From: an uncultured Cytophagia bacterium
GTDB taxonomy: Bacteria; Zhuqueibacterota; Zhuqueibacteria; Residuimicrobiales; Residuimicrobiaceae
Reading direction: 5' to 3'
NCBI GenBank assembly: GCA_964436305.1
Contig: CAYTCI010000001.1
Span: 48,037-112,036 of the forward strand
DNA: 64,000 nt
Positions within the stretch are counted from its first letter, which is position 1; each line of letters begins with the position of its first letter. The notes beneath the pieces are model-generated. The model had not been told where the DNA came from and did no database searches. It saw nothing but the letters and a program-made list of their open reading frames with translations. Position numbers and translations under genes: made by a program. Of this stretch, positions 31,920 to 64,000 are shown one piece after another.

Positions 31920-31967
31920 CGCTTCCTGGAAGAAAGCAGCATTTGAACTGCACAAAGGGAGGTGGCT

Positions 31968-46318: not shown

Positions 46319-49300
46319 ATGAAGCTTCGTCGGCTACTGGTTTTGTTGCTGGTTCTCGGTTCCGTGACCGTTGTGCTGGCGGGAACGACCGGCAAGATCG
46401 CCGGCTCGATCACCGATTCCGCCACGGGTCAGGGGCTGCCCGGCGCCAATGTCCTGGTCAAGGGCACGAGCTATGGCGCGGTCACCGATCTGAACGGTCA
46501 CTATACCATCCTTAACGTGCCGCCGGGAACCTATGATCTGCAGATCTCCTTCATCGGTTTCAGCGCGGTCACGGTTACCGATGTCAAGGTGAACATTGAT
46601 CTGACCACCACCCAGAATGTCAAGCTGCGCGAGCAGTCGCTGGTGGGGGAGGAGATCACAGTGCGCGCCGAGCGGCCGGTGATCCAGAAGGACCTGGCCG
46701 CCAGCGAGCTGCAGGTGACCTCCGACCAGATCAAGAATCTGCCGATCTCTTCGGTGGGCGAGGCCATCGGCATCCAGGCCGGTGTCACCTCCGGCCTCTC
46801 GATCCGCGGCAGTGGCTCGGATGAAGCCCTCTTCATGGTCGACGGTATCTCGCTGCGCGATGAACGCGACAATACCCCGATCGCCAAAGTCCCCTTGAGC
46901 GCGGTCAAGCAGGTCTCGGTGCAGGCCGGCGGCTTCGGGGCCGAGTACAATAACGTCCGTTCGGGTCTGGTCAACGTCGTCACCCGCGAGGGCGATTCCC
47001 GCGGTCTGAGCGGCACCCTCACCCTGCGCACCAACTACCAGCCCTGGCAGTCCGGCAAAAGCTATCTGAAAAAGTATTTCGGCGATGTCTCCCCCTTCGG
47101 CGCCGACTCTTACTGGCTGCGTCCCTATCTGGATGATGCCGTCGCCTGGACGGGCACCAAAAACGGCGCCTGGGATCCCTACACCCGCCGGCAGTATCCG
47201 GAGTTTGACGGCTGGAATGCCGTCTCGCAGACCTCGCTGACCGATGACGACCCGACCAACGATGTTACCCCGGAAGCGGCCCAGACCATCTTCAAGTGGC
47301 AGCATCGCAAGCAGGGCGACATCACCAAGCCCGACTACCTGGCCGATTTCGGTTTCGGCGGCCCGGTGCCGCTCATCGGCAAAAAACTCGGCAACCTGCG
47401 CTTCTTCATCTCCGGGCGCCAGGAGAGCGAGCAGTACCTTTTTGAGATGTCCCGCAAGGATCTGCTCGACAAGAGCACCCTGCTGCGCCTCGGCGCCGAC
47501 ATCACCCCCTCGATGAAGCTCTCGCTGAGCGGTCTCTACGGCGAAACCTACGGCACCAACTACAGCCTCTCGGGCGGCACCTCAATCATGAGCAGCCCCG
47601 AGGACATCGCGGACCAGATGGCGTCGGCGGGATTCACGGTGCCGACGCGTATCTACACCGACATCTACTTCTCGCCGACTTCGCGGTTTTACTCGACCTT
47701 TTCCTCCAAATTGACCCACTTTATTAACAAGAGCACCTACTACGATCTTCAGCTCAAGTATTCACAGAAAAAATACTTCACCAATCCCGGACGCTTCCGT
47801 GAGGCCGCGGCCAAATACGAGATCGTTCCCGGCTATTTCGTCGATGAGGCCCCCTTCGGCTTCAGCACGACGCCGGTCTATGGCATCGACGGCGATTTTA
47901 TGATGGGCGGCGCCGTCGGCGTCTCCCGCGACTATAGCAAATACCGCACCTACAGCGGCAAGCTCGACATGGTCAGCCAGGTCAATCGCCGCAACCAGAT
48001 CAAGAGCGGTGTTGAGTTTGTCATGGACGACTATGAACTCTCCTACGGCGCCTACAATGCCTATTTGCCCGAGGGCAACTTTTGGAACGACGTCCAGCAG
48101 AAGCCGATCCGCGGCAACGTCTACCTGCTCGACAAGCTGGAATACGAGGGTTTCATCGCCACCGTCGGCGCCAACCTCGATTATTACACCCCCAACAGCC
48201 AGTGGTATAACGTGGCCACCTACGACCGCACCTTTTTCGGCCAGGGTTATTCCAGCGATCTCGATGCCAAATACAAGTCCAAGGATGTCAAACCCCGCTG
48301 GATCCTCAGCCCGCGTATGAGCATCTCGCATCCGATCACGGAGAATTCCAAGCTCTACTTCAACTATGGCCATTACCGCCAGATCCCGAACTCGGAGAGC
48401 CTCTACCGGGTTCAGCGCACCGGCATCAACGCCCTGAGCCGCTATGGCGATCCGACGGTGCCCTTTGAGAAAACGGTCGCCTACGAACTGGGTTACGACC
48501 ACGCGCTCTTTAACAATTTCCTGCTGCACATGGCCGCCTATTACAAGGATATCACCGACCAGGCCTATTCGGTCCGCTACATCAGCTACGACGGCAAGGT
48601 CAATTATTACAAGAACACCAACAACTCCTACGAGGATATCCGCGGCTTTGAAGTGGATCTCTCCCGGACGATGGGGCGGTGGCTGGTCGGCGACGTCAAC
48701 TATGAGTATCGCGTCGAGACCTCCGGTTATTTCGGCCGCGCCTACCAGTACGAGGATCCTGCAGCGCAGCGTGAATACAACAAGAGCAACCCGGTGCAGT
48801 CCAAACCGCGGCCGCGCCCGCGGGTCAAGGCTTACCTGGACTTCAATACCCCCTCCGATTTTGGCGCGATCCTTGGCGATTGGCACTTTACCACCACCGC
48901 GCAGTGGATCGCCGGCTACTGGATGACCTGGAATCCTCAGGACATCGCCGGCATCAGCCTCAATACCCAGTACAAGGATTGGTATGGCCTGAACCTCAAA
49001 CTCTCCAAGACCGTCGGCCTCGGCCCGGTCGAGCTCAAGGGCTTCGTTGACGTGTACAATGCCATCAACTACAAGTACCTCTCCGGCAGTGCCCACGTCG
49101 ACATTTACGATTACAACTATTACATGAAATCGCTCCATCTGCCTCAATCCGTTGCCCGTCATCTCGGCTACAACAACATCCCCGGCAGCGACCGGCCGGG
49201 CGATTACCGCAATGACGATGTCGAATTTGTGCCAATGGAATGGGTTGCCGATGTCAATACGATCACCGCGCCGAGCTCCCGGGCCGTCTATTATGAGGGG

Positions 49301-49474
49301 CCCTCGGGGCGCTATATGCAGTATGTCGACGGCCAGTGGCAGAAGGTCGCCGACGGCAAGATCAAGAAGATTCTTGACGACAAGGCCTACATCGATATGC
49401 CGAACCAGACCTTTCTCAATTTCTTCAATCCGCGGCAGATCTTCTTCGGCATCACGCTGAATTATAATTTTTAA
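46319..49474 (+). CDS. TonB-dependent outer-membrane receptor with N-terminal CarboxypepD_reg-like domain (paralog 1)
   Basis: AGGAGA RBS and signal peptide. GTTGKIAGSITDSATGQGLPGANVLVKGTSYGAVTDLNGHYTILNVPPGTYDL (CarboxypepD_reg). Plug: IRGSGSDEALFMVDGISLRDERDN...GGFGAEYNNVRSGLVNVVTREG. Long barrel ending in ...ITLNYNF. Confidence 0.88.
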   Translation: MKLRRLLVLLLVLGSVTVVLAGTTGKIAGSITDSATGQGLPGANVLVKGTSYGAVTDLNGHYTILNVPPGTYDLQISFIGFSAVTVTDVKVNIDLTTTQNVKLREQSLVGEEITVRAERPVIQKDLAASELQVTSDQIKNLPISSVGEAIGIQAGVTSGLSIRGSGSDEALFMVDGISLRDERDNTPIAKVPLSAVKQVSVQAGGFGAEYNNVRSGLVNVVTREGDSRGLSGTLTLRTNYQPWQSGKSYLKKYFGDVSPFGADSYWLRPYLDDAVAWTGTKNGAWDPYTRRQYPEFDGWNAVSQTSLTDDDPTNDVTPEAAQTIFKWQHRKQGDITKPDYLADFGFGGPVPLIGKKLGNLRFFISGRQESEQYLFEMSRKDLLDKSTLLRLGADITPSMKLSLSGLYGETYGTNYSLSGGTSIMSSPEDIADQMASAGFTVPTRIYTDIYFSPTSRFYSTFSSKLTHFINKSTYYDLQLKYSQKKYFTNPGRFREAAAKYEIVPGYFVDEAPFGFSTTPVYGIDGDFMMGGAVGVSRDYSKYRTYSGKLDMVSQVNRRNQIKSGVEFVMDDYELSYGAYNAYLPEGNFWNDVQQKPIRGNVYLLDKLEYEGFIATVGANLDYYTPNSQWYNVATYDRTFFGQGYSSDLDAKYKSKDVKPRWILSPRMSISHPITENSKLYFNYGHYRQIPNSESLYRVQRTGINALSRYGDPTVPFEKTVAYELGYDHALFNNFLLHMAAYYKDITDQAYSVRYISYDGKVNYYKNTNNSYEDIRGFEVDLSRTMGRWLVGDVNYEYRVETSGYFGRAYQYEDPAAQREYNKSNPVQSKPRPRPRVKAYLDFNTPSDFGAILGDWHFTTTAQWIAGYWMTWNPQDIAGISLNTQYKDWYGLNLKLSKTVGLGPVELKGFVDVYNAINYKYLSGSAHVDIYDYNYYMKSLHLPQSVARHLGYNNIPGSDRPGDYRNDDVEFVPMEWVADVNTITAPSSRAVYYEGPSGRYMQYVDGQWQKVADGKIKKILDDKAYIDMPNQTFLNFFNPRQIFFGITLNYNF

Positions 49475-49506
49475 TTTTCTCATCCCCTAATCGAGAAGGA
49501 ACGGAT

Positions 49507-51618
49507 ATGAGACGAAATGAATTGTGGATCTTGACCAGCCTTGTTGCCGCCCTGCTCCTGGCCATTCACCCGGTCCAGGCGGATGACACCAAATGGCTGG
49601 CTACCGGCATGCTGCACGACTGGTTCTCCAGCGCTGGTTACGAGCAGGAGGTCGGCCGGCGTCATCTGGTGGCCGATCAGCAGGATGGACTGCAGTGGCC
49701 CGCCTTGTTTGAATATCAGGACTGCAAGGCGGCCAAGGCGTTGTGGATCGGTGCGACCAATTATAACGACCCGATCGCCGGCAAGACCTACCCCTTCAAG
49801 GTGGTGCACGTCGGTCCGCGTGTGCTCAATGAGCTGAGCGAGTGGATGCCGTCGAAATTCAAGCTCTACGGCCGTCACGACAAGTCGACGGTTTATGTCG
49901 ACGGGACCTCCGGCGGCAAGCTCGATCTGCTCGATTTCGTGGATGAGGTCGATCCCAATCTGACCGCCGACCGCTACCTCTATACCGAGGCCAACACCCA
50001 GATGGGCATCACCGAAAAACGCAAGGTCTACCAGTTCGGCCAGCAGTATCACAATAACTATTTCATCCAGGAATACACCTTTGTCAACACCGGCATTATC
50101 GACACCAAGGGCACCAAGGTCAGCCAGACCTTAACCGGGGTGGTCTTTTTCTTCCAGCATCGCTACGCGACCTCCAAGGAGGCCTGTGTCTACGGCCTCT
50201 CCATCCTGCCGCAGTCGGCGGCCTGGGGACACAGCGAAATGAACGATACGATGTGGGTTTCGGATCAGGACGGGATCGAGAAGTATCTCTCGCTCTTTTC
50301 CTGGAAGGGCCAGCACTCCAAGGCGGGGTTTGACTGCATCGGCGCCCCGGATAACCGGGAGAACGGCGACGGCCACCTTACCGCGCCGCATTATGCCGGC
50401 TTTGCGGTCTTGCACGCCGACAAGAGCGCCTCGGATCGATCCAATGACAAGAGCCAGCCGACCACAACCCAGTACATGGGTTCGGATGTCACCATCACCT
50501 CGGGCAACGACCCCTACAACGAGCCCAAGATGACCCAGGAGTATGCCGCGATGACGGCGGGCCATCCGGCCAAGAGTCATGCGGATGGGGTGATCGCCTC
50601 GGGCCAGGCGGCCGATGAATATCTCGGGACGGTCGGCGGCTTCACCCAGTGCGCCGGCTTCGGGCCCTACACCATGGCGCCGGGCGACAGCGTCCACATC
50701 GTCCTGGCCGAAGGCATTGCCGGTCTCGACCGCAAGGCCTGCTACACCATCGGCGCCAAATGGTTCAAGGAAGTGGGCCCCTATGTACTGCCGAACGGTT
50801 CGACGACCACCGACCGGGATGAGTACAAGGATAAATGGGTCTACACCGGCCGCGACTCCCTGATCAAGACCTTTCAGCGTGCTGCCGCCAACTACAAGGC
50901 CAACTACAAGATCCCGGTTCCCCCGCCGGCACCGAGCTTTTTCGAGGTCGCTGGTGGCGGCGACCGTATCCAGCTCAAATGGTCGAACAACGCCGAAAGC
51001 TGGCCGGGGTTTGCCGGATACAAGATCTTCCGGGCCATCCACACCCCCGATACCCTCTTTGAAGAGCTGTTTGAATGCGGCAAGGGCACCAAAAACCCCC
51101 AGGTTGTCAACAGCTATGATGACCTGACGGCCATCCGTGGTTTTGACTATTACTACTACATCGTCTCCTTTGACGATGGCAGCAGCAACAAGACCATGGC
51201 CAATCCCGGCGGTCCGCTCTACAGCAGTATCTTTTACGCCAAGACCATCAATCCGACCAACCTCAAGCGCAAGGCAGGTGAGGTTCTGGATGACAGCCTC
51301 GACGCCAGTGGCCATATTGTCAAGACCGGCATCCGTATCGTTCCCAATCCCTACAGCATTCGTGCGCGGGATTTGCAGTTCGGCGACAGCGGGCCGGACC
51401 GTATCATGTTCTACAACATCCCGGGCATTTGCACGATCAAGATCTATACCGAGCGCGGTGACCTGATCCATACCATTGAGCATACCAACGGCAGCGGCGA
51501 TGAAGCCTGGAATTCCATCACCTCCTCGTCCCAGACGGTCGTCAGTGGCGTCTATATCGTCGTTTTCGAGACGCCCAGTGGCCAGAAAGCCGTTCGCAAA
51601 TTTGTCGTCATCCGTTAA
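49507..51618 (+). CDS. secreted ~700-aa protein of unrecognised family with FN3-like module and T9SS-like C-terminal domain (TBDR partner, paralog 1)
   Basis: Signal peptide. Paralogous to 59848-62001 with shared blocks QQYH.NYFI, DCIGAPD, LPNGSTTT..DEYKD.WVY.G.DS, GGD.I...W...GYK.(F/Y)RA, and tail VPNPY.IR.R.LQ...IMF.NIPG.CTI.IYTERGDLI.TI.H.NGSGDE.WNSITS...VVSGVYIV.FE...RKFV.IR. Confidence 0.72.
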   Translation: MRRNELWILTSLVAALLLAIHPVQADDTKWLATGMLHDWFSSAGYEQEVGRRHLVADQQDGLQWPALFEYQDCKAAKALWIGATNYNDPIAGKTYPFKVVHVGPRVLNELSEWMPSKFKLYGRHDKSTVYVDGTSGGKLDLLDFVDEVDPNLTADRYLYTEANTQMGITEKRKVYQFGQQYHNNYFIQEYTFVNTGIIDTKGTKVSQTLTGVVFFFQHRYATSKEACVYGLSILPQSAAWGHSEMNDTMWVSDQDGIEKYLSLFSWKGQHSKAGFDCIGAPDNRENGDGHLTAPHYAGFAVLHADKSASDRSNDKSQPTTTQYMGSDVTITSGNDPYNEPKMTQEYAAMTAGHPAKSHADGVIASGQAADEYLGTVGGFTQCAGFGPYTMAPGDSVHIVLAEGIAGLDRKACYTIGAKWFKEVGPYVLPNGSTTTDRDEYKDKWVYTGRDSLIKTFQRAAANYKANYKIPVPPPAPSFFEVAGGGDRIQLKWSNNAESWPGFAGYKIFRAIHTPDTLFEELFECGKGTKNPQVVNSYDDLTAIRGFDYYYYIVSFDDGSSNKTMANPGGPLYSSIFYAKTINPTNLKRKAGEVLDDSLDASGHIVKTGIRIVPNPYSIRARDLQFGDSGPDRIMFYNIPGICTIKIYTERGDLIHTIEHTNGSGDEAWNSITSSSQTVVSGVYIVVFETPSGQKAVRKFVVIR

Positions 51619-51658
51619 GGGCTATAGACACGCAATCCCAATAAAGGAGTAATGGATT

Positions 51659-52666
51659 ATGAAGCGTATGATCATTGGTATCGTATCCGTTCTTCTGGTG
51701 CTTGGCGCCTTTTATTCGGATGGCCAGGCGCAGAAAAAGCTCGCCCAGACCGGATGCCAGTTTCTCAGCGTCGGCACCGATGCCCGCGCCACCGGCATGG
51801 GTGAGGCCTTCACCACGGTGGAGGGCTCCGGCTCCGCCCTCTTTTACAATCCCGCCGGCATGGCCGGCAATATCAGGAATCTCGATGCCTCGTTCACCCA
51901 AATGACCTGGATCGCCGATATCCAGTACCTGGCCCTCTCGCTGGCCGGCCGGCCCTTCCGCGGTCAGTACGGCACCTTCGGCGTCAGCGCCATGGCCATC
52001 GATTATGGCGATCTGGATGGCACCGTCGTCGCGGATAACGAGCAGGGTTTTCTGGATACCGGCAAATTCGGACCGGGCGCGTGGACCATCGGACTGGGCT
52101 ATGCCATCGATCTGACTGACCGCTTCTCGGTCGGCGGGCAGGCCAAATATGTACACCAGGATCTCGGCCATGTCACCATCCCGCTGAACAATACATCGCC
52201 CTACGTCACCGACAAGAAGGATTACCTCAAGAACGTCTATGCTTTTGATTTTGGTACACTCTACAAAACCGGCTTCAAAAGCCTCGCCTTTGGCATGTGC
52301 GTGCGCAATTTCTCGCAGGAGGTCAAGTACGAGCGCGAGGGTTTCCAGCTGCCGCTGACCTTCAAGGTGGGTTTTTCAATGGATGCCCTCGATTTCTTTC
52401 CCGGGATCGCCAAGAATCACAATCTGCTGCTATCGATCGATGCGGTCCATCCGCGTGATTTCCCGGAATATCTCAATCTGGGCGCCGAATACAAGCTCAT
52501 GGATCTGCTGGCGCTGCGTGCCGGCTACATCACCCGCCAGGATGACTATGGCTTCACCGCGGGTTTCGGTGTGAACACCAATTTTGGCGTGGCCATCGAT
52601 TACTCCTATTCGCCGATGGATGTATTCAATAACGTTCACCGTTTCACCTGCAGATTCGGCATCTAA
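51659..52666 (+). CDS. PorV/PorQ-family (FadL-like) outer-membrane beta-barrel protein
   Basis: Signal peptide, then the family-typical opening QTGCQFLSVGTDARATGMGEAFTTVEGSGSALFYNPAGMA. Beta-barrel pattern ending in ...HRFTCRFGI. Confidence 0.72.
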   Translation: MKRMIIGIVSVLLVLGAFYSDGQAQKKLAQTGCQFLSVGTDARATGMGEAFTTVEGSGSALFYNPAGMAGNIRNLDASFTQMTWIADIQYLALSLAGRPFRGQYGTFGVSAMAIDYGDLDGTVVADNEQGFLDTGKFGPGAWTIGLGYAIDLTDRFSVGGQAKYVHQDLGHVTIPLNNTSPYVTDKKDYLKNVYAFDFGTLYKTGFKSLAFGMCVRNFSQEVKYEREGFQLPLTFKVGFSMDALDFFPGIAKNHNLLLSIDAVHPRDFPEYLNLGAEYKLMDLLALRAGYITRQDDYGFTAGFGVNTNFGVAIDYSYSPMDVFNNVHRFTCRFGI

Positions 52667-52711
52667 TTCACTGAACCTTGATTCGTTGATCCTTAGATGA
52701 GGACGTTTCAT

Positions 52712-54103: not shown

Positions 54104-56521
54104 ATGAAGAAAATGTTAGTGTTCGCCATCGCACTGGTGCTCCTGACCGCGATGGCCGCATCGGCTGGCTGGGAATTCGTCCGGAATTTCCCGAACAATG
54201 ACTTCAAGCCGGTCGGTGGTATGGGTTCGCACGGCCTTATCGTTGACCGCGAAGGCAAGGTCTGGCTGCAAATGTACGGCGCCACCGGCTCGATCACCAA
54301 GGCCAACGGCACCACCGCCACCACCCGGCAGATCTTCTGCTTCTATCCGGATGGTACTCCCACCGCCTGGAGCGGCAACAACCTGATCACCGGCTTTGGC
54401 CAGACCGATACCCTCTACAATTCCCACCGCGGTCTGGGCATGGACCATGATGGCAACATCCTCTGGACGGCCTATCCCTACATCTACCGCTTCGATTACA
54501 AAACCGGCGATCTGCTCCAGCGCATCGTCCCGCAGCAACTGACCTCGTACTGCGCCCCGGTGGCGGATGTCGATGGCGATATCTATCTGGGCTACGTCCT
54601 CCCGGGTAAGCCGATCGAGACCTACGGCGCCGATGGCTCCTACCTCGGCAATGTGAGTGATTCGCAGGACGGCTACGGCCGTACCATGGCGGTCTCGGAT
54701 GACGGCCTCAGTGTCTACGTCCCGAGATACGATAAAAAGTTCCTGCTGCGCTACACCCGTCCCGACAAGTTCAGCCCCTTCGCGGTTCCCGACACGCTCT
54801 GCAAGGGCGCGGCCACCGCTTCGATGAACTGGAACTATGCCACCAGCAAGCTGTGGATCGACGGCGGCAACAACGACGAAGCCCCCTCCGGCGGCCGCTA
54901 TCTGTCCATGACCTGGTACGAGATCGATCCGGTCACCTTCACCCCGACCGACAGCATCAGATGGCAGACCAACGATCCGGCCCAGCCGGCTGGCGAAAAG
55001 CCGCGTGGTATTTCCTTCACGGTCACCGGCGACACGGCCTACGTCTCCTGCTTCGGCGCGGATTACTATGTTCCGGCGCAGATGTTCGTCAAGAGTGCGG
55101 GCGGCGATGTCAATGTCACCTTCCGCATCAACATGGGCATCCAGCAGCAGTATGGCAATTTCAATCCGGCCACCGACAAGGTCGTCATCCGCGGCAGCTT
55201 TAATGGCTGGGCGGGCGATGCCGATGAGTGCCTGCCGACGGCTGAAGCAGGCGTCTATGCGCTGACCAAGACCTTCCCGGCCGCTCAGGTCGGCACCGAG
55301 GTCGAGTTCAAGTACGTCATGATGCCCGGCGATCGCTGGGAGAGCGTCGACAACCGCAAACTGACCATTCCTGGCGTCTCCAAGAGCCTCGATGTGGTCT
55401 ATTACAACAACGTCAGTGTCTACACCGAGACCAAGACCGCCAATGTCACTTTCCAGGCGGATGTGACCGACATGCTGGCCAAGGGCTTCACCCCCGGGAC
55501 CGACGAGATCCTCGTCCTCGGCGGCTTCAACGGCTGGGCCTACAACGATGAGTGGATCGCCCAGCCCGACCTGGTGGTCCCGACCCTCTACACGGTCACC
55601 CATGCCATTACCGACGTTGTCGGCGCCTCCCAGGGCTGGAAATGGCGTGGACGCCCCGAGGGCAATTTTGCTGACGGTGGCTGGGAAGGCGGCGACAACC
55701 ATACCTTCACCTTCACCGGTGAGGATCTGGTGCTGGATGCCTTCAAGCCGAATGTGGCTCCTGCCGGCAAGAAACTGGCGCAGGATGTCACGGTGACCTT
55801 CAAGGTCAATGTGGCCGGCGCGAAGGATTATTTCAACAAAATGGCCTTCCCGACGGTTGACAAGGTCGTCCTCAACGGCGATTTCGCTCCGCTGGGCACC
55901 GGTGGCTGGGCGGGTTGGAGTGTCTCCGATATCGGCGGCACCCTGATCACGATGTACGATGACGCCACCAACGGCGATGCGACCGCTGGCGACGGCATCT
56001 GGACCACCCAGGTGAAATTCGCGGCTGGCACCATTGCCACCCACTATTACAAGTACGGCATCTACTCCGTCGGCTATACCGACACCCTCAACGCCGGTAC
56101 CATCCCGATGGACAACGAAGCCGGAATGTCGATGAACCATCTGATCACCATCCCCGACGCCAATCCGGTTTATGTCAATGCCACCGACAAGTTTGGCTCG
56201 CAGTGGGTCAAGGTCGACAGAATTCCGACCAGCGGTTTGCCTGCAGAATTCACCCTGAATGCCAACTATCCGAACCCCTTCAACCCGACCACCTCGATCA
56301 CCTATGATCTGCCGATGAGAAGCCGTATCCGTCTGACGGTCTTCAATGCGATGGGTCAAGTGGTGGCCAATCTGGTTGATGGCGAACAGAATGCCGGCAG
56401 CTACCGGGTCTCCTGGAACGGCACCAACCTGGACGGCAGCATTGCCCCGAGCGGCATCTATTTCTACCGCCTCGAAGGCGATGGTTTTGCCAAAACCATG
56501 AAAATGACCCTGATGAAGTAG
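54104..56521 (+). CDS. secreted protein: N-terminal propeller-like region, three CBM-like beta-sandwich repeats, T9SS type-A C-terminal sorting domain
   Basis: AAGGAGG RBS and signal peptide MKKMLVFAIALVLLTAMAASA. Three repeats with the (V/T)F..(N/D)...D.(V/I)(V/L)(I/L).G.FNGW signature. C-terminus YPNPFNPTTSITYDLP...GIYFYRLEGDGFAKTMKMTLMK. Confidence 0.72.
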   Translation: MKKMLVFAIALVLLTAMAASAGWEFVRNFPNNDFKPVGGMGSHGLIVDREGKVWLQMYGATGSITKANGTTATTRQIFCFYPDGTPTAWSGNNLITGFGQTDTLYNSHRGLGMDHDGNILWTAYPYIYRFDYKTGDLLQRIVPQQLTSYCAPVADVDGDIYLGYVLPGKPIETYGADGSYLGNVSDSQDGYGRTMAVSDDGLSVYVPRYDKKFLLRYTRPDKFSPFAVPDTLCKGAATASMNWNYATSKLWIDGGNNDEAPSGGRYLSMTWYEIDPVTFTPTDSIRWQTNDPAQPAGEKPRGISFTVTGDTAYVSCFGADYYVPAQMFVKSAGGDVNVTFRINMGIQQQYGNFNPATDKVVIRGSFNGWAGDADECLPTAEAGVYALTKTFPAAQVGTEVEFKYVMMPGDRWESVDNRKLTIPGVSKSLDVVYYNNVSVYTETKTANVTFQADVTDMLAKGFTPGTDEILVLGGFNGWAYNDEWIAQPDLVVPTLYTVTHAITDVVGASQGWKWRGRPEGNFADGGWEGGDNHTFTFTGEDLVLDAFKPNVAPAGKKLAQDVTVTFKVNVAGAKDYFNKMAFPTVDKVVLNGDFAPLGTGGWAGWSVSDIGGTLITMYDDATNGDATAGDGIWTTQVKFAAGTIATHYYKYGIYSVGYTDTLNAGTIPMDNEAGMSMNHLITIPDANPVYVNATDKFGSQWVKVDRIPTSGLPAEFTLNANYPNPFNPTTSITYDLPMRSRIRLTVFNAMGQVVANLVDGEQNAGSYRVSWNGTNLDGSIAPSGIYFYRLEGDGFAKTMKMTLMK
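55109..56068 (+). repeat. three tandem ~90-aa protein-level repeats (about 55109-55375, 55438-55720, 55784-56068) inside the 818-aa T9SS cargo
   Basis: VNVTFRINM...DKVVIRGSFNGWAGD / ANVTFQADV...DEILVLGGFNGWAYN / VTVTFKVNV...DKVVLNGDFAPLGTGGWAGW. Reminiscent of starch/glycogen-binding CBM20/25/48-type modules. Boundaries are approximate. Confidence 0.5.
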
Positions 56522-56536
56522 TTCTCTGATCGAACT

Positions 56537-56570: not shown

Positions 56571-56614
56571 TGATGGTGACCTTGATCGGTGTGCCAAATG
56601 AAGCCAGGATACTT

Positions 56615-56650
56615 CCTGCCGGAAGACGGCCCCCACCGCCTTCCGGCAGG
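56615..56650 (+). promoter_or_regulatory. strong hairpin in the leader of TonB-dependent receptor paralog 2
   Basis: Perfect 10-bp arms ctgccggaag (56616-56625) and cttccggcag (56640-56649), extendable by a C-G pair, with a 14-nt C-rich loop. No U-tract follows. Function unknown. Confidence 0.35.
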
Positions 56651-56790
56651 GAGCACCCGCACGGGCACTCATCGACCGTCACAACGCAAGACGACCTCTT
56701 TATCCGGACCGGGAGGGCACGGTCGTTGCTCCTCCACTCCTCGGCCGCTGCCGTATCGTCCGATCACGACCTTTTTAAAATGAGGGTTCT

Positions 56791-59700
56791 ATGCGACGAG
56801 CGCTGCTTCTTGTTCTGATCTGTCTCACAACGGGGACACTCCTTGCCGGCACGACCGGCAAGATCACCGGAGTCGTCACCGATGCCGAGAACGGGGAGAG
56901 TTTACCGGGGGTTAACGTCAGCCTCCCGGGCAGCGGGTTCGGCGGGATCACCAATTTGAATGGCCGCTTTCTCATCCTCAATGTCCCTCCGGGAACCTAC
57001 GATCTCAAATTCAGCCTGATGGGCTATGCCACCGTGACCATGCGGGCGGTGCGTGTGGAGATCGATTTGACCACCCAGGCCGACGTGCAGCTCAAGGCGG
57101 AAACCCTGCAAGGGGAGGAGGTTGTCGTTGTCGCCCATCGTCCCCTGGTGGTGCGCGATATCTCCAACAGCCAGATGAGCATCGAGGCGGCCAGGATCGA
57201 GAGCATGCCGGTCGAAACCGTGCGTCAGGTGCTCAGCCTCCAGGCGGGCATTCAATCCGGCCGTGAGGGCATCCTCGTCCGCGGCAGCAGCGCCGGGCAA
57301 ACAGCCTTTATGATGGACGGCGTCTCCCTCAATGACGAACGCTCCAACATTCCCTACACCGCGGTTGGCTTCAGCGCGGTCAAGGAGATCAGCGTCCAGA
57401 CCGGCGGCTTCAACGCCGAATATGGCAATCTCCGCGCCGGCCTGGTCAATGTCATCACCAAGGAGGGGGAATCGGGACAGTACAACGGCGCCCTGATCCT
57501 GCGCTACAGCCCGCCCGCCGCCAAGCATTTCGGTTCCTCGATCTATGACCCCTACTCCTTCTTCAACCGTGTCTATATGGATCCGGCGGTCTGTTATACC
57601 GGCACCAACAACGGCGCCTGGGATGAATTCACCCGCCGGCAGTACCCCAGTTTCGACGGCTGGAACACCTATTCGGAAAAGACCCTGCAAGACAAGGATC
57701 CCAGCAATGATCTGACGCCGGAAGGCGCACGGCAGCTCTATGAATGGCAGCACCGCCGGCAGGGGGATATCACCAAACCGGACTATATCATCGATGGCAC
57801 CTTTGGCGGGCCGGTGCCGCTGGTCGGCTCCCGCCTCGGCCACCTGCGCTTTCTCGCTACCCATGTCCGCGAACAGGATATGTTTATCTATCCCTTGTCA
57901 CGCGATAACTATGGCGAAAATTATACCCGTCTGAAACTCACCAGCGACATCAGCCCCAAAATGAAGCTGATCCTCTCCGGCCTCTATGGTGAGGTCCACT
58001 CCGTTTCACCCTATAACTGGACCACCTTGCCCAACGGCCGCGTGCTGCGCGACCAGAGCGAGATCGCCGATCTGCTCACCGCCACCGAAGGCCGGGCTGT
58101 CCTCTACATGCCCGGGTACTACAGCCCGAGCTCGGTCTATCGCCAGGTCTATAGCGCCCAGCTCACCCATATGCTCAGCACCCGGACCTATTACGATCTT
58201 TCTCTGCAGTATAATTACAGCCGTAACAATACCTACAAAACCGCTGACCGCGACACCGCCCGCATCTATCAGCCGGTTCCGGGATATTACGTCGACGAAT
58301 TGCCCTACGGCTATATGGGTTACAGCGCCCCGAGCATCAACGGCGACCGGATGGGGGCCTGGATGAATCTTGGCCGGGACAAGAGCATCAACTCGACCGC
58401 TCACTTCAAGCTGGATTTGACCAGCCAGGTCAACCATCGCAACCAGGTCAAGACCGGCGTGCAGGTCGTCTACAACGACTATAATATCCGTTCCTTCACC
58501 GAGAGCCTCGCCCTCCCCGATGGCTGGAGCCGCACGATGTTCTACCACGTGTTCCCCTATCGGGTCGGGGCCTACCTGCAGGACAAGCTCGAGTTCCAGG
58601 GATTCGTCGCCAATCTCGGCTTGCGCATGGATTACAGCGATCCCAATGGCAGCTATTTGGTCCTGGGCGACTTTGACGAAAACCTGGGCAAGGGATTGGG
58701 CAAGCAGCTGTTGCAGAGGGTCAGCAAGGCGGATGCCAAATCGACGCTGCTCTGGAGCCCGCGCCTTGGGGTTTCGCACCCGATCACTGCCAACTCCAAA
58801 CTCTATTTCAACTACGGCCATTTCACCCAGGAACCCTCCTCTGCCAACCGGTTCATGCTGCAGCGCGAGCAGAACGGCTCGGTGACCTACCTCGGCAATC
58901 CCAATCTGGCGCCGGAGAAAACGATCCAGTATGAACTGGGCTATTCGCAGAATTTGCTCGACCTCTTCCTGTTGAATATCGCCGCCTATTACAAGGATAT
59001 TACCAATCAGCCGGGCTGGATCAACTATATCAATGTCAACAGCACGGTGAATTACAGCAAGGCAGCCAACAACAACTATGCGGATATCCGCGGACTCGAG
59101 CTGACCCTGAACAAGACCGCGGGCCGCTGGATCTCCGGTTTCATCAACTATACCTACGATGTCCGTACCAGCGGCTATTTCGGCCTGCTGAGCTATTACC
59201 AGGACCCGGCGCGGCAGCGGGACTATCTGGCGCTGAATACCTACCAGTCCAAGCCGCGGCCGCAGCCCTACGCCCGCTTCAATCTGGATCTGCACACGCC
59301 GCGGGATTGGGGCGGCAAGCTCTTCAGCGATATCAACTTTAACTGCCTCGGCGGCTGGAGTGCCGGCGCCTACGATACCTACAATCCCAACGATCTGGCG
59401 GGTATTCAGGATAACGTCCGCTGGAAAGATACCTATTACCTCGACATGCGTCTCTCCAAGCAGGTGAGCGCCGCCGGTCTGCAGGTCCAGCTCTATGTCG
59501 ATGCCAGCAATATCTTCAATTTCAAGTTCCTCAACTATGCCGGCTTTTCCGACAGCTATGATTACGACTTTTACATGCAGTCTCTCTGCTTTTCCTGGGA
59601 GAAGGGCGATAACAAGGGGAGCGACCGCATCGGCGCGTATCGCCCCGCCGACGTCGCCTACGATCCCCTGGAAGCTAATCCTGGGAACAATCCGGCGATT

Positions 59701-59817
59701 TCCGCCCGCAATGCCAAACGCAAGGAGAACAAGTCCTATATCGACAATCCTAATATCGAGGCCCTGACCTTTCTTAATCCCCGCGATATCACCTTTGGTC
59801 TAAAGCTGAATTTTTAA
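56791..59817 (+). CDS. TonB-dependent outer-membrane receptor with CarboxypepD_reg-like domain (paralog 2)
   Basis: AGTTGKITGVVTDAENGESLPGVNVSLPGSGFGGITNLNGRFLILNVPPGTYDL. Plug: VRGSSAGQTAFMMDGVSLNDERSN...GGFNAEYGNLRAGLVNVITKEG. Barrel ends in ...FGLKLNF. Confidence 0.88.
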   Translation: MRRALLLVLICLTTGTLLAGTTGKITGVVTDAENGESLPGVNVSLPGSGFGGITNLNGRFLILNVPPGTYDLKFSLMGYATVTMRAVRVEIDLTTQADVQLKAETLQGEEVVVVAHRPLVVRDISNSQMSIEAARIESMPVETVRQVLSLQAGIQSGREGILVRGSSAGQTAFMMDGVSLNDERSNIPYTAVGFSAVKEISVQTGGFNAEYGNLRAGLVNVITKEGESGQYNGALILRYSPPAAKHFGSSIYDPYSFFNRVYMDPAVCYTGTNNGAWDEFTRRQYPSFDGWNTYSEKTLQDKDPSNDLTPEGARQLYEWQHRRQGDITKPDYIIDGTFGGPVPLVGSRLGHLRFLATHVREQDMFIYPLSRDNYGENYTRLKLTSDISPKMKLILSGLYGEVHSVSPYNWTTLPNGRVLRDQSEIADLLTATEGRAVLYMPGYYSPSSVYRQVYSAQLTHMLSTRTYYDLSLQYNYSRNNTYKTADRDTARIYQPVPGYYVDELPYGYMGYSAPSINGDRMGAWMNLGRDKSINSTAHFKLDLTSQVNHRNQVKTGVQVVYNDYNIRSFTESLALPDGWSRTMFYHVFPYRVGAYLQDKLEFQGFVANLGLRMDYSDPNGSYLVLGDFDENLGKGLGKQLLQRVSKADAKSTLLWSPRLGVSHPITANSKLYFNYGHFTQEPSSANRFMLQREQNGSVTYLGNPNLAPEKTIQYELGYSQNLLDLFLLNIAAYYKDITNQPGWINYINVNSTVNYSKAANNNYADIRGLELTLNKTAGRWISGFINYTYDVRTSGYFGLLSYYQDPARQRDYLALNTYQSKPRPQPYARFNLDLHTPRDWGGKLFSDINFNCLGGWSAGAYDTYNPNDLAGIQDNVRWKDTYYLDMRLSKQVSAAGLQVQLYVDASNIFNFKFLNYAGFSDSYDYDFYMQSLCFSWEKGDNKGSDRIGAYRPADVAYDPLEANPGNNPAISARNAKRKENKSYIDNPNIEALTFLNPRDITFGLKLNF

Positions 59818-59847
59818 CCCGGCAAACGGCAGAGGAGCGATTAGTCC

Positions 59848-62001
59848 ATGAACAAGAATTCCAGATTTCTGTCGGTCATCGTCGGGGTGCTGATCTCTTT
59901 AACACTGGTGCAAATGGCCTCGGGACAACTGCTGGGTACAGAACGGCGCTATGTCCGTGTCGGCCCGCTGCAGAGCTTTTTCCAGTCGTATGGCCGTGAG
60001 CGCGCCTTTAACAACTCCTATTATGAAGGGCTGATGTGGCCGGCCGACTATTCCTACCAGGACAATGCTGTCATCAACTGTATCTGGATGGGGTGCCGGG
60101 AGTTCCGGAACAAGAACGACAAATATTACGACAAGTATGCGTTCCCGATGGCCACCGACGAAAATGTCGGCATGGCGATCTTTCCCCTCGAGATCAAGCA
60201 GATCGCCAAATTTACACCGCCCTCGATCTATGTGGATGGCAGTGATATAACCGCGATCTATGCCGGCGATGTGGACGAGATCAATCCCGACCAGGCCGCC
60301 GACCGCGTCATCATCAATCGCATCAATACCTCGATGGGACTCTCGATGACGCGGGAGATCTATTATTTTTCCCAGCAATATCACGACAATTATTTTATCA
60401 AGGTTTTCACCTTCACCAACACCGGCAATACCGATTTCGACGACGAGATCGAGTTGACCACGCCGCTCAAGGCGGTGCGGATCAGTACCGCGGTGCGCTA
60501 CAGCGTGTGCCGGGAGGGGGCGATGATGACCAGCGGCACCCAGCAGTGGGGTCAGCAGAGCTGGGTGACCCGGCGCGGCGAGAACTATGCTGCGCATGCC
60601 GGTGAAACCCTCACCGAAGCGAACGGACCGGTGCAGTGGTTGCGGTGTAATTTTGCCTGGGCCGGGCAGAAAAAGGAGATCGCCTGGGATTGCATCGGGG
60701 CTCCGGATGTCACAGGGGACGGCCGCCTGGCTGCGCCGCAGCATGCCGGCAGCGTCATCCTGCATGTTGACAAGAGCGGGAGCGACAAGTCCGATGATCC
60801 AGCCCAGCCCTTGCTCAATGGCTGGCACGGCGCGGATGCGCAGAGCTTTTTCTCGACCGGGCTGATGACCGACAACGATCTGCCACTGATGGCCAAGCTC
60901 TATGATATGACGGCCGGTGCTGCCCTCGGCGGGATCGGCGGCAACGAACGCTTTGACGAAAAATATCAGGCCTCCTCGCCCGACGCCTTTACCGTCCACG
61001 GGGACGCTGGCGGGACCCACATGTGGGTCTGTTACGGCCCCTGGGATCTGGCGCATGGTGAAAGCATCACCATCGTCGAGGCCGAGGGGGTGGCCGGCTT
61101 GTCGCGCGAGCAGTGCGAGCGAATCGGCCGCCGCTGGAAGAAGGCCTACAACAATCCCAGCGATGCGGGGCCCTTTACGCTGCCCAACGGCTCGACCACG
61201 ACCAGCAAGGATGAATACAAGGACCAATGGGTCTATAGTGGCAAGGATTCGATCCTGCTCACCTTCAGCCGGGCCAAACGGAATTTCGATTCCGGTTTCA
61301 GGATTCCCCAGCCGCCGATGCCGCCCTCCTTTGTGGAGGTCAAATCGGGTGGCGACATGATCAGCGTCTCCTGGGGTCCGAGCAGCTCCGAGAGCGCCGG
61401 CGGTTTCGGCGGCTACAAGGTCTATCGCGCCATCGGCCGGCCCGACACCCTCTACACGGAGATCTACAGCGGCGGCCCCGGGACCTATGCCTATAATGAC
61501 AAGCAGGCTGTACGCGGGCAAGCCTACTACTATTATGTGGTCGCCGTCGATGACGGCTCGAACAATAGTGAAGGCCGCCATAATCCGGCCGGTCCCCTGC
61601 ACAGCAGCAAGTTCTATGGCCTGGCGAGCCAGCCTGCCTATCTCTCACGCCAGGCCGGCCAAAAGCTCCAGGATATTCGCGTCGTCCCCAATCCCTACGA
61701 TATCCGGTCGCGAAAACTGCAGTATGTGGGGGAGGATGACAAGATCATGTTCCTCAACATCCCCGGTCACTGCACCATCCGGATCTATACCGAGCGGGGC
61801 GATCTGATCGACACGATCCACCACGAGAATGGCAGCGGCGATGAGCGCTGGAATTCGATCACCTCTGCACGCCAGGTGGTGGTCTCCGGCGTCTATATTG
61901 TTCACTTTGAGGTTACCCAGGATTACCGGGACAGCGTTACCGACCAGCTCCTTTACAGCAAGGGCGAAGGCACGTTCCGCAAATTCGTGATCATTCGCTG
62001 A
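59848..62001 (+). CDS. secreted ~700-aa protein of unrecognised family with FN3-like module and T9SS-like C-terminal domain (TBDR partner, paralog 2)
   Basis: Signal peptide. Colinear with 49507-51618 (see the shared blocks listed there). Starts 30 nt after TBDR paralog 2. Confidence 0.72.
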   Translation: MNKNSRFLSVIVGVLISLTLVQMASGQLLGTERRYVRVGPLQSFFQSYGRERAFNNSYYEGLMWPADYSYQDNAVINCIWMGCREFRNKNDKYYDKYAFPMATDENVGMAIFPLEIKQIAKFTPPSIYVDGSDITAIYAGDVDEINPDQAADRVIINRINTSMGLSMTREIYYFSQQYHDNYFIKVFTFTNTGNTDFDDEIELTTPLKAVRISTAVRYSVCREGAMMTSGTQQWGQQSWVTRRGENYAAHAGETLTEANGPVQWLRCNFAWAGQKKEIAWDCIGAPDVTGDGRLAAPQHAGSVILHVDKSGSDKSDDPAQPLLNGWHGADAQSFFSTGLMTDNDLPLMAKLYDMTAGAALGGIGGNERFDEKYQASSPDAFTVHGDAGGTHMWVCYGPWDLAHGESITIVEAEGVAGLSREQCERIGRRWKKAYNNPSDAGPFTLPNGSTTTSKDEYKDQWVYSGKDSILLTFSRAKRNFDSGFRIPQPPMPPSFVEVKSGGDMISVSWGPSSSESAGGFGGYKVYRAIGRPDTLYTEIYSGGPGTYAYNDKQAVRGQAYYYYVVAVDDGSNNSEGRHNPAGPLHSSKFYGLASQPAYLSRQAGQKLQDIRVVPNPYDIRSRKLQYVGEDDKIMFLNIPGHCTIRIYTERGDLIDTIHHENGSGDERWNSITSARQVVVSGVYIVHFEVTQDYRDSVTDQLLYSKGEGTFRKFVIIR

Positions 62002-62065
62002 GCTGGCGTAGCGCGCCCTCCGGGCGCATGTTCAAGGGCATTACGGATTACAGGAGAGAAGCATT

Positions 62066-64000
62066 ATGGCAAGACTGTTAAAATGGAGCCTGATTCTTGT
62101 ACTCGGCCTTTCATGCGGGCTGTTCGCCGGGACGACCGGCAAATTGACCGGCACAGTGACGGATGCCGAGAGTGGAGGGCCTCTCCCCGGGGTCAACGTC
62201 GTCATCGAGGGGACAAGTTATGGCGCCGTGACCAATATCGAGGGGCGCTATACCATCATCAACCTCCCGCCCGGCACCTATGATCTCCGCATTTCGATGC
62301 TGGGCTATGCCACCTACCAGGTGCGCCAGGTGCGCGTTGAGATCGACCGCACCACCGAGGTCAACCGCGCCCTGAAAAGCCAGGCGATCGAGGGTGAGAA
62401 CGTGGTCGTCGTCGCCCAGCGCCCGGTGGTCAAGCGGGATATCTCCAGCAGCCAGACCAATCTTGAGGCGGCCGCGATCGAGAACATGCCCGTACAGACC
62501 GTGCGCGAAGCCCTCGTCCTTCAGGCCGGCATCCAGAAGGGCAGCGAGGGCTTGTTGATCCGCGGTGGCGCGGCCAATCAGACCGGCATGCTGCTCGACG
62601 GTCTGTCGCTCAACGATGAGCGTTCCAACATCCCCTATGCGGCGCTCTCGATGAGTGCGGTCAAGGAGATCCAGATCCAGACCGGCGGATTCAATGCCGA
62701 ATATGGTAATATCCGTTCCGGCCTGGTCAACGTCATCACCAAGGAGGGCGATGCCTCCCGTTACAATTTCACGGCCAATCTCAATTACAGCCCCCCCGCG
62801 AAAAAACATTTCGGCCGCTCGCTCTATGATCCGATGTCTTATTTTAATCGGGTTTACATGGATCCGACGGTCTGTTTCTCCGGCACCAACAACGGCGCCT
62901 GGGATGACTATACCCGCAGCCAGTATCCCAATTTTGACGGCTGGCAGTCGGTGGCTGACAAGACTCTGCAGGATGCCAATCCTGATAACGACCTCACAGC
63001 CGTGGGCGCGCAGCGCCTCTATGAGTGGCAGCACCGCCGCCAAGGCGATATCACCAAGCCCGATTACGTAGCGGATCTTGGCTTCGGCGGCCCGGTGCCC
63101 CTGCTCAATAAATTCGGCCGCACCCGTTTCTTCCTCAGCCACTTCCGCGAACAGGAGATGTTCGTCTTTCCGCTCTCCCGCGACGGCTATACCGAGAATT
63201 ATACCCAGATCAAACTGACCTCGGACCTCACCAAAAACATGAAGGTGATGTACACCGGGCTGTACGGTGAACTCTACTCGGTATCCCCCTACAACTGGAC
63301 CACCGCGCCGACCGGATATGTCCTTCGCGATCAGGGCGAGATCGCCGATCTGCTCAACAGCACCGACGGCCTCGCCGTCCTCTATGTGCCGGCCTACTAC
63401 AGCCCGACAGCGATCTATCGTCAGATGCACGGCCTCAAGCTGACCCATATGCTCTCACCGAAGACCTTTTATGAAGTCACGGCGGAGTATCAATACAACC
63501 GCACCAATACCTATCAGATGAGCCTGCGGGATACCGCCAAAACGAACCAGATCCTGCCCGGCTATTTTGTCGACGAAATGCCCTACGGCTACTGGGGCTA
63601 TGGCACCAACAGCATCAACGGCGACCGCATGGGCGGCTGGATGAATCTGGGCCGCGACAAAAGCATCAATGCCACCACCAATCTCAAGGTTGACCTGACC
63701 AGCCAGATCGCCGCGCGCCATCAGATCAAGACCGGCGCCCAGGTGGTCTATAACGATTATAATATCAACTCCGGGACGGTCAGCCCCTCGATGGACACCT
63801 GGAACCGGTCGATGACCTACCGGGTTTTCCCCTTCCGCATTGGCGCCTACCTGCAGGACAAGATCGAGTATCAGGGTTTTGTCGCCAATCTCGGCTTGCG
63901 CATGGATCAGGTCAGTCCCAACGGCGACTATCTGGTCCTCGATGCCTATGATGTCAATCTGGGCGCGGGCTATGGCAGGGAGATCACCACCAACGTGGTC
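62066..64000 (+). CDS. TonB-dependent outer-membrane receptor with CarboxypepD_reg-like domain (paralog 3), 3'-truncated by the window end; not listed in the supplied ORF track
   Basis: Hand translation from the ATG at 62066: MARLLKWSLILVLGLSCGLFAGTTGKLTGTVTDAESGGPLPGVNVVIEGTSYGAVTNIEGRYTIINLPPGTYDL...IRGGAANQTGMLLDGLSLNDERSN...LYEWQHRRQGDITKPDY...GAGYGREITTNVV. The frame is open to nt 64000 and colinear with paralog 2. Confidence 0.85.
   Translation, partial: MARLLKWSLILVLGLSCGLFAGTTGKLTGTVTDAESGGPLPGVNVVIEGTSYGAVTNIEGRYTIINLPPGTYDLRISMLGYATYQVRQVRVEIDRTTEVNRALKSQAIEGENVVVVAQRPVVKRDISSSQTNLEAAAIENMPVQTVREALVLQAGIQKGSEGLLIRGGAANQTGMLLDGLSLNDERSNIPYAALSMSAVKEIQIQTGGFNAEYGNIRSGLVNVITKEGDASRYNFTANLNYSPPAKKHFGRSLYDPMSYFNRVYMDPTVCFSGTNNGAWDDYTRSQYPNFDGWQSVADKTLQDANPDNDLTAVGAQRLYEWQHRRQGDITKPDYVADLGFGGPVPLLNKFGRTRFFLSHFREQEMFVFPLSRDGYTENYTQIKLTSDLTKNMKVMYTGLYGELYSVSPYNWTTAPTGYVLRDQGEIADLLNSTDGLAVLYVPAYYSPTAIYRQMHGLKLTHMLSPKTFYEVTAEYQYNRTNTYQMSLRDTAKTNQILPGYFVDEMPYGYWGYGTNSINGDRMGGWMNLGRDKSINATTNLKVDLTSQIAARHQIKTGAQVVYNDYNINSGTVSPSMDTWNRSMTYRVFPFRIGAYLQDKIEYQGFVANLGLRMDQVSPNGDYLVLDAYDVNLGAGYGREITTNVV

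Follow-up and report, generated by a model that had tools for sequence, protein, structure and literature searches.

A conserved gene module pairing TonB-dependent transporters with secreted beta-rich partners in Zhuqueibacterota and neighbouring phyla: a possible SusD-independent nutrient-capture system

A set of eight genes in a 64,000-nucleotide stretch of DNA from an uncultured Cytophagia bacterium of the Zhuqueibacterota (contig CAYTCI010000001.1; the whole stretch is called the window here) was found to encode three TonB-dependent transporters, two secreted partner proteins of about 700 residues, a PorV-family barrel and two further proteins that appear to be destined for the cell surface. 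The genes lie on the same strand at 46.3-64.0 kb and we consider it probable that they form a self-contained outer-membrane nutrient-capture module, conserved across lineages of the Fibrobacterota-Chlorobiota-Bacteroidota (FCB) group outside the classical Bacteroidia, where a transporter (T) would act together with its cognate partner (P) and with the proteins V, G and C. The genes, and a hairpin that lies among them, are as follows.

46319..49474, + strand: TBDR1 (T1), type-1 TonB-dependent transporter (TonB-dependent receptor, TBDR), 1051 aa counted from MKLRRLL
49507..51618, + strand: partner P1 (type 1), 703 aa, 32 nt after TBDR1
51659..52666, + strand: V, beta-barrel protein (335 aa) of the outer membrane, PorV/PorQ/PorP family, 40 nt after P1
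52697..53935, + strand: G, candidate surface lipoprotein with TIG domain and propeller, lipobox LAGC
54104..56521, + strand: C, type-A cargo of type IX secretion (the T9SS), 805 aa
56537..56564, + strand: intrinsic-terminator-like hairpin, 12-bp stem with 9 G-C pairs and a T-rich tail
56791..59817, + strand: TBDR2 (T2), type-2 transporter, 1008 aa
59848..62001, + strand: partner P2 (type 2), 717 aa, 30 nt after TBDR2
62066..64000, + strand: TBDR3 (type 2), truncated at the end of the window, with 645 aa visible

The intergenic gaps are 32, 40, 30, 168, 269, 30 and 64 nt. The G+C content at third codon positions is 0.73-0.80 across the eight genes and therefore the frames called are the coding frames. 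An earlier, sequence-only reading of this DNA had described three same-strand paralogous transporters, the first two each followed by a paralogous secreted protein of about 700 residues, as two or three equal tandem cassettes. The transporter calls and the two pairs, with their gaps of 32 and 30 nt, stand, whereas the picture of equal cassettes had to be given up: the actual unit is a multi-gene module made of two pair types plus V, G and C. The latter three had been recognised as a PorV-like barrel, a TIG/propeller protein and a T9SS cargo resembling carbohydrate-binding modules (CBM), lying between the cassettes; their nature was borne out, and they are integral members rather than interlopers.

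The linkage of P to T was analysed by tblastn with the window proteins. A scan of one genome per species gave at least 594 confirmed partner-encoding stretches, and 159 loci drawn from this genome scan plus a metagenome scan were taken for analysis. A family T was observed directly upstream in 177 of the 190 P genes that have enough upstream sequence to be testable (median gap 43 nt) and 177 of the 183 T genes have a P as the next gene downstream, so that the co-occurrence and adjacency suspected from one locus were found to hold across the 159. The exceptions include several that the merging rule created; locus L021, for example, does have the pair. The linkage of P to T is not local chance. 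By record title, the carriers belong to KSB1/Zhuqueibacterota (Zhuqueibacterota being the former KSB1), Calditrichota, Melioribacteraceae/Ignavibacteriales (Ignavibacteria), Neomarinimicrobiota/Fidelibacterota (Marinimicrobia), Delongbacteria and WOR-3. These make at least six candidate or named phyla, with a few labels of metagenome-assembled genomes (MAGs) being loosely assigned. The nearest matches to the window itself are MAGs at 91%, and the nearest named taxon is Ca. Oleimicrobiaceae of the Zhuqueibacterota.

The pairs were observed to fall into two types. T1 is joined to P1 in 83 cases and T2 to P2 in 104, while mixed pairs occur in only 5 (187 matched vs 5 mismatched). The usual order is T1-P1-V-G, with T2-P2 and C following in varying order, and 77 of 84 P1-type partners are followed by V. 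As an independent example, the gene calls of a complete 5.03-Mb Calditrichota chromosome read T1-P1-(193-aa protein)-V-G-C-T2-P2, placed among relA, greA and aro genes. In a mirror-tree comparison the distance matrices of T and P are correlated with r = 0.92 (0.85 as partial correlation given G), against raw values of 0.68-0.76 and partial values of 0.26-0.54 for every other gene pair. T1-P1 and T2-P2 are two ancient, co-diverged cognate pair types. We also noticed that a Delongbacteria MAG (Go_SlDig_bin_59) carries P1-V-G on two different contigs (L035 and L066), and the module may occur more than once in some genomes.

TBDR3 runs into the end of the window, and its continuation was read from a metagenome contig (L091) whose proteins are 93% identical to P2 and TBDR3. 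In this contig TBDR3 has 1013 aa and a third partner of 720 aa, 60% identical to P2, begins 17 nt later; therefore the third receptor also has a partner. The next gene encodes a 1031-aa protein with GHL10, Big_5 and a T9SS C-terminal domain (CTD) that is clearly of type A by its score, and it is followed by a GT9 glycosyltransferase gene. SusD-like genes are absent from this extension, from the window, from the complete Calditrichota genome and from the other related loci examined, and the T-to-P gaps leave no room for a SusD between T and P.

P1 and P2 are 39% identical (E 1e-158) and have the same architecture. Both have a cleavable signal peptide without a lipobox, and the AlphaFold model of P1 (pLDDT 85.7, pTM 0.82, built from 32 sequences) is divided into three parts.

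aa 28-465, nt 49588-50901: N-domain, beta-rich with a few helices
aa 474-560, nt 50926-51186: FN3 domain
aa 604-703, nt 51316-51615: T9SS-type C-terminal beta-sandwich (the CTD)

No Pfam family was found for P, neither with the single protein nor with 32 members, and it has no sequence relative in the PDB. Its homologues, where they are named in the databases, are called 'fibronectin' or 'hypothetical protein'. The family comprises at least 681 clusters at 90% identity, none with a Pfam domain; at 50% identity, 503 representatives have E below 1e-30. Foldseek searches with the P1 model returned FN3 proteins, PorZ and, weakly (TM about 0.2), sandwich regions of GH94-type phosphorylases; nothing SusD-like was returned and the model has no SusD or TPR features. 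The sequence-only reading had taken the partner to be free of a lipobox, to carry an FN3 module and a CTD-like tail and not to be SusD-like. The signal peptide, the mostly beta model, the Foldseek results and the lack of any SusD Pfam match all agree with it. Nor did the partner turn out to be a known enzyme class that lacks linkage to the transporters, given the missing Pfam and PDB matches and the adjacency counts above.

The CTD of P was compared with both known classes of T9SS tail. P1 scores 20.7 bits against TIGR04183 (type A; cutoff 23) while P2 gives no match, and PF18962 was matched at E below 1 by only 2 of the 32 family members. The type-B model CHU_C (PF13585) was missed as well (best 15.9 bits, cutoff 27), with 7 of the 32 members matching weakly, and CHU_C was thus matched more often than Por_Secre_tail. 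The CTD also matches the C-terminus of PorZ. Its motifs are VPNPY, GxY and K..R-end, and its fold is a C-terminal beta-sandwich. Between the P1 and P2 types the CTD is 65-68% conserved and the N-domain 34% (65% vs 34% for P1 and P2 of the window). A CTD that is kept twice as well as the N-domain between paralogue types fits recognition of the CTD by something that both types share, be it V or the T9SS, and the low value of the N-domain fits its divergence together with its own receptor. A further argument, that the CTD is too conserved for a mere signal, was dropped because the CTD (0.70) is close to the N-domain (0.64) within the P1 family, and because the CTDs of the ordinary cargo C and of GHL10 proteins likewise outconserve their bodies. 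Separately, Cys642 of P1 (nt 51430-51432, in the CTD motif IPGxCTIKIY) was observed to be invariant in all P1- and P2-type partners where no other cysteine is conserved. It could be a free thiol or form an intermolecular disulfide.

The N-domain has a set of invariant polar residues: D72, R156, R172, N184, N194, R219, H303, D305, S307, D314, D327, E402, K441 and D450. Divergent relatives of P were found where the N-domain and FN3 domain are fused to a right-handed beta-helix/DUF1565 (pectate-lyase-like) region or to BNR/sortilin propellers. These proteins, from loci L162-L164, end in a canonical Por_Secre_tail, and the two whose context was read (P0126 and P0203) are not adjacent to receptors of the family.

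P0126, P0128, P0135 and P0157: fused relatives of 1235-1580 aa
P0203, P0216 and P0224: fused relatives of 1091-1275 aa

Turning to the transporters, TBDR1 and TBDR2 are 43% identical end to end over about 1050 residues, and TBDR2 and TBDR3 are 63% identical. CarbopepD_reg_2 was found in all three at 70-81 bits (cutoff 32), the lowest being TBDR1 with 69.9, and Plug (PF07715) at 38.9, 35.4 and 40.8 bits for TBDR1, TBDR2 and TBDR3 respectively (cutoff 23.9). The barrel model TonB_dep_Rec_b-barrel (PF00593) was matched by TBDR2 only (84.4 bits, cutoff 27). The barrel of TBDR1 was missed by Pfam and is still accepted because TBDR1 aligns over its full length with TBDR2. Its layout is a signal peptide, a CarboxypepD_reg-like N-terminal extension, a plug, a helical block GAWD..KPDY (nt 47165-47338) and a barrel that ends in NYNF; in TBDR2 the N-terminal extension covers aa 23-101, the plug covers aa 128-231, and L11, a long loop, lies at aa 907-998. 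The AlphaFold model of TBDR2 (pLDDT 76.5, pTM 0.71) has 22 long strands by DSSP. With Foldseek it matched solved TonB-dependent transporters, among them PhuR, FepA, FusA and SusC, at E 7e-24 and TM(target) of 0.6-0.8, and its fold is as close to siderophore and haem transporters as to SusC-type structures. TBDR1-3 are TonB-dependent transporters and the TBDR2 model is unmistakable. The earlier receptor calls are thereby upheld by the Plug model for all three and by the barrel model and the fold comparison for TBDR2.

TonB-box-like motifs are located between the N-terminal extension and the plug: GEEITVRA in TBDR1 (nt 46646-46669), GEEVVVVA in TBDR2 (nt 57112-57135) and GENVVVVA in TBDR3. This segment has pLDDT <50 in the TBDR2 model. 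By eye, these motifs agree with the TonB-box consensus and we take them to be candidate TonB boxes. The spacing of about 125 residues between the putative TonB box and strand 1 in TBDR2 agrees with that of BtuB.

A further feature of these transporters is the block (N/K)NGAWD...WQHR(K/R)QGDITKPDY at residues 283-340, 275-332 and 277-334 of TBDR1, TBDR2 and TBDR3 respectively. It had been noticed earlier as a shared block and is present in all three, with the correction that TBDR1 reads KNGAWD and not NNGAWD. The topology of TBDR2 was read by counting DSSP strands under the rule that periplasmic turns are short. On this count the block would belong to extracellular loop L1 (residues 241-330, nt 57511-57780), a loop of four predicted helices that follows strand 1 (residues 232-240). 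L1 is the best-conserved segment of the whole transporter both within and between the two types (0.71-0.76), whereas the putative loops L3, L5, L6, L7 and L8 are conserved inside each transporter type and not across types.

None of the three transporters was recognised as a SusC. The SusC/RagA model TIGR04056 was missed with 81.6, 76.0 and 70.8 bits (cutoff 368.25) and only the N-terminal 200-240 residues match it. The family profile found fragments only in the PDB (N-terminal extension, plug and part of the barrel) and no full-length SusC. Searches of the PDB with the sequences of P, TBDR2 and C gave nothing or CTD matches only. In the Pfam scan no Oar-specific model matched the transporters of the window.

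V was observed to be a member of the PorV/PorQ family (NF033709, 202.7 bits, cutoff 90). It fails the equivalog models of PorV (NF033710, 79.9 vs 250) and PorQ (NF033711, 82.7 vs 220), both of which are built mainly on Bacteroidota, so that V of these distant phyla could still be orthologous. V also scores 30.2 bits against Pfam PorP_SprF (PF11751, cutoff 22.3) and matches PorV 6h3i in the PDB at E 4e-6. C-tail cysteines of the SprF kind were looked for and none of the cysteines of V is conserved across 142 homologues. G combines an IPT/TIG domain (Pfam TIG, 44.8 bits) with a beta-propeller of the NHL/PknD type and was found at 118 places across the loci. Its profile matches PknD-derived propellers in the PDB at E 5e-52; a weak match to the TIG domains of B. 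ovatus BACOVA_02650 was also obtained. The predicted architecture of G resembles that of a surface glycan-binding protein as found in Bacteroides. C has an N-terminal propeller-like core, followed by weak CBM20/CBM53-like modules with scores below the CBM_20 and CBM53 cutoffs and by a canonical type-A CTD (TIGR04183, 34.7 bits, cutoff 23). Most C homologues have about 455 aa, consisting of core and CTD, and the CBM-like modules are additions of the window copy. The copy in locus L160 shows a faint SGL match in the core besides Por_Secre_tail, and the search of the PDB with C gave nothing beyond CTD matches at most.

Unbiased clustering of all other open reading frames (ORFs) in the 159 loci revealed several recurrent neighbours. 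The catalytic domain GHL10 occurs near the module in 25 of the 159 loci (L091 14657-17752 plus 24 others), on either strand; genes for NamZ exo-N-acetylmuramidases are nearby in 10 loci, and a PD40-like protein also recurs. GHL10 and NamZ together give a thin hint of cell-wall glycans as substrate. A small lipoprotein without a Pfam family stands between P1 and V in 49 of the 159 loci, with about 200 aa in general and 336 aa in Marinimicrobia. It is not present in the window, where P1 and V stand 40 nt apart.

L008 12117-12698: small lipoprotein between P1 and V
L037 12088-12693: small lipoprotein between P1 and V
L160 12166-12747: small lipoprotein between P1 and V
L043 (Marinimicrobia) 12056-13072: small lipoprotein between P1 and V

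The module is probably transcribed as two units, T1-P1-V-G-C and T2-P2-T3 onward, because of the terminator-like hairpin after C, which lies 16 nt past the stop codon of C and inside the 269-nt gap before TBDR2. A sigma-70 promoter scan was uninformative (12 sites vs 8.6 expected) and an Rfam scan of the window found no riboswitch and no other RNA. The window neighbours of the module are housekeeping genes (phoH, uvrD, a sigma-70 factor gene, proS, pyrF and lon). The module is self-contained, set among housekeeping genes and without a regulator.

These observations suggest the following model. Each T would pair functionally with its own cognate P of about 700 residues. P, which is not lipidated, would be exported through Sec and then by the T9SS by means of its C-terminal beta-sandwich, and would probably be retained at the surface with its CTD bound to V, encoded right after P1, much as type-B CTD cargo is held by PorP/SprF-like carriers. 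The N-domain with its conserved polar site may bind, or possibly process, an extracellular polymer and pass fragments to T, which would import them using TonB energy. G and the T9SS-anchored C would serve as auxiliary binding proteins, and the T9SS-tailed GHL10 enzyme present in many relatives may supply the cutting activity. The substrate is probably a glycan: this leaning comes from the likeness of G to surface glycan-binding proteins, the weak CBM20/53 modules of C, the GHL10 genes in 25 of 159 loci, the fusions seen in P relatives and the weak likeness of P to GH94-type sandwiches. We hold it somewhat short of an even chance that the module is an ancient SusD-independent 'utilisome' of several FCB phyla, where the T9SS, in place of lipoprotein export, delivers the cognate partner and a dedicated PorV-like barrel holds it beside the channel.

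Several observations weigh against the model. Genes, folds, adjacency, pair types and their co-divergence are shown directly, whereas contact between T and P, a hold of V on P, transport direction and the kind of substrate are what we infer from the locus, and the outside position of L1 comes from DSSP strand counting and not from coordinates. Being longer than V and G, T and P give cleaner distances, and this may inflate the excess of their mirror-tree correlation. The CTD of P reaches the curated cutoff of neither the type-A nor the type-B model. There is no regulator and there are no cytoplasmic catabolic genes near the module, in the window and in the complete Calditrichota genome, unlike in most polysaccharide utilisation loci, and GHL10 and NamZ are only occasional neighbours. 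Two true orphan P genes without a receptor upstream were found (L051 9950-12031 and L065 9962-12082), in surroundings of metallophosphoesterase, C26 peptidase, encapsulin and GDSL esterase genes. Finally, the relatives of the P N-domain that are free T9SS cargo, away from transporters, retain the conserved polar residues, and P may therefore have an autonomous activity instead of a lid function.

This last point bears on the strongest alternative, where P is a new extracellular enzyme or a stand-alone binder that is co-transcribed with the importer of its product and forms no stable cap. The invariant polar residues, from D72 to D450, are many, and since they are kept in beta-helix- and BNR-fused relatives that do not adjoin transporters, the N-domain has an intrinsic ligand or catalytic site; it is because of this site that we keep the enzyme-plus-importer explanation as a serious rival. 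The best structural neighbours of P are, moreover, sandwich domains of glycoside phosphorylases and hydrolases. However, these matches are weak, with TM about 0.2, and no catalytic family was recognised in P. The strict 1:1 pairing and the very high co-divergence of T and P exceed what simple co-expression needs, and a dedicated barrel follows P1. Overall we regard this alternative as rather unlikely.

We consider it improbable that the module is an envelope or surface-structure system, with transporters that take part in the export or assembly of surface proteins, as reported for Oar of Myxococcus, or in T9SS or surface-layer housekeeping. The varied housekeeping neighbourhoods, the lack of regulator and catabolic genes, the fixed composition across phyla and the presence of a PorV-family barrel with two or three T9SS substrates would suit such a system, and there is a precedent for a TonB-dependent transporter with a CarboxypepD_reg domain on which protein secretion depends (PMC6434023). 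On the other hand, G and C look like ligand-binding proteins, secreted GHL10 enzymes recur beside the module, and plug, TonB-box-like motif and barrel are as intact as in importers. P and C also own T9SS-type export signals and therefore no transporter is needed for their export.

A substrate-specific version of the nutrient-capture model, the scavenging of peptidoglycan-derived glycans or muropeptides from other bacteria, would draw on the recurrence of GHL10, a family that includes the denuded-glycan hydrolase DigH of E. coli, and on the NamZ genes in 10 loci. It is very improbable in spite of the dependence of the cultured Marinimicrobia member Fidelibacter multiformis on exogenous muropeptides (PMC11652737), since few GHL10 substrates have been established, NamZ genes are found in few loci, on either strand and among unrelated housekeeping genes, the module also occurs in lineages without reported dependence of this kind, and the Fidelibacter paper mentions no TonB system.

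The nutrient-capture model, which we prefer, has to be seen beside known systems. Partner-assisted TonB-dependent uptake by SusCD is the defining nutrient strategy of Bacteroidota, and polymer uptake has been little described in the neighbouring FCB phyla, whose mostly uncultured members abound in oceans, sediments, hot springs and digesters. The module shares with SusC/SusD (RagA/RagB) a transporter with a CarboxypepD_reg-like extension, a TonB-box-like motif, a plug and a 22-strand barrel, a surface-partner gene immediately after the transporter gene and, as in SusCD utilisomes, auxiliary TIG-domain surface binders and a surface enzyme encoded alongside, with several paralogous pairs per locus. 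It differs in that P is mostly beta, is not a lipoprotein and has a T9SS-type CTD whereas SusD is alpha-helical and TPR-like; in that T fails the SusC/RagA model, has a fold no closer to SusC than to siderophore receptors and carries a family-specific conserved helical loop of 90 residues; in that the module includes a PorV-family barrel and has no regulator or catabolic genes; and in that the same two pair types are found across phyla where SusCD forms many substrate-specific loci. The module would act in the manner of SusCD without belonging to it, with a non-homologous partner and a different export route.

A parallel for a beta-rich partner is BtuB-BtuG of Bacteroides, where a TonB-dependent transporter for a small ligand (vitamin B12) is served by a beta-rich surface lipoprotein that is not SusD. 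A surface protein of this kind caps or serves the transporter there too. However, the BtuG-type partners are lipoproteins, specific for a small ligand and unrelated in sequence, and are not known to involve a T9SS signal or a PorV-like barrel.

For V, the nearest comparison is with type-B CTD cargo and PorP/SprF-like barrels (SprB-SprF, PG1035-PorP) and with PorZ-PorQ. CTD cargo is genetically linked there to cognate PorP/SprF-like barrels, which are required for its secretion and hold it at the surface (PMC9143113, PMC12618676). The CTD protein P1 likewise adjoins a barrel of the PorV/PorP superfamily; V passes the PorP_SprF cutoff, and the CTD of P matches CHU_C and the C-terminus of PorZ. 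In contrast to PorP, V scores best as PorV/PorQ family; in contrast to SprF, it lacks the conserved C-tail cysteines (PMC12635249); and the P CTD, unlike that of type-B cargo, reaches neither CTD cutoff. A further difference is that the cargo is here coupled to a TonB-dependent transporter, and no such arrangement was found described for any carrier. The Oar protein of Myxococcus xanthus (PMC6434023) is also a long transporter, of about 1000 aa, from outside Bacteroidia; its N-terminal domain is CarboxypepD_reg-like and it lacks a SusD partner. It differs in being implicated in protein secretion, and it is not known to have a conserved downstream partner of the P kind.

In the full-text literature that was searched, which leaves out most subscription journals, no description of the module was found, and papers on Caldithrix, Melioribacter, Zhuqueibacterota and Fidelibacter do not mention it. 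The sequence-only reading had called the locus SusC/D-independent. This is right for the locus, which has no SusD, and too strong for the lineages, which are not devoid of SusCD as Melioribacter roseus is reported to encode SusCDE (PMC3534657). If M. roseus also carries the module, the two would coexist in one organism. The idea of a distinct receptor plus surface-partner uptake module has gained support from the linkage and from the non-SusD nature of the partner, while uptake and T-P contact are parts of it that we still infer.

The module joins TonB transport with type IX secretion, which as a rule are studied separately, and it places a large family without a Pfam model within a module of conserved composition and order across phyla. 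If the 'utilisome' reading is true, lid- or partner-assisted TonB-dependent uptake would have been solved a second time independently, and Calditrichota, KSB1/Zhuqueibacterota, Marinimicrobia and Ignavibacteria could rely on the module as their main means of polymer capture. The module would then provide a marker for substrate-capture capacity in these lineages, P a new structural class of transporter partner and V a testable case of a PorV-family barrel as dedicated anchor. The module is carried by a complete Calditrichota genome, so that experiments are feasible if that strain is in culture.

A few other genes of the window were noted. Two PhoH-family genes are present on the + strand at 2600-3595 and 44686-46002, the second being a PIN+PhoH fusion located directly upstream of the module. 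The housekeeping genes are interspersed with a 7TM-HD receptor gene (3610-5901, +) and a gene for a papain-family (C1) cysteine protease (31962-32909, +). An ORF of 2715 aa (19540-27687, +) encodes PD40 beta-propeller repeats and numerous TPR repeats, with a CHAT (caspase-like) domain at the C-terminus, and is preceded by an AsmA-like gene (15659-18946). Two adjacent ORFs at 27848-29122 and 28732-30375 (+), both with NTP_transferase and hexapeptide regions (GlmU/GlgC-like), overlap as listed, and the true start of the second is probably further downstream.

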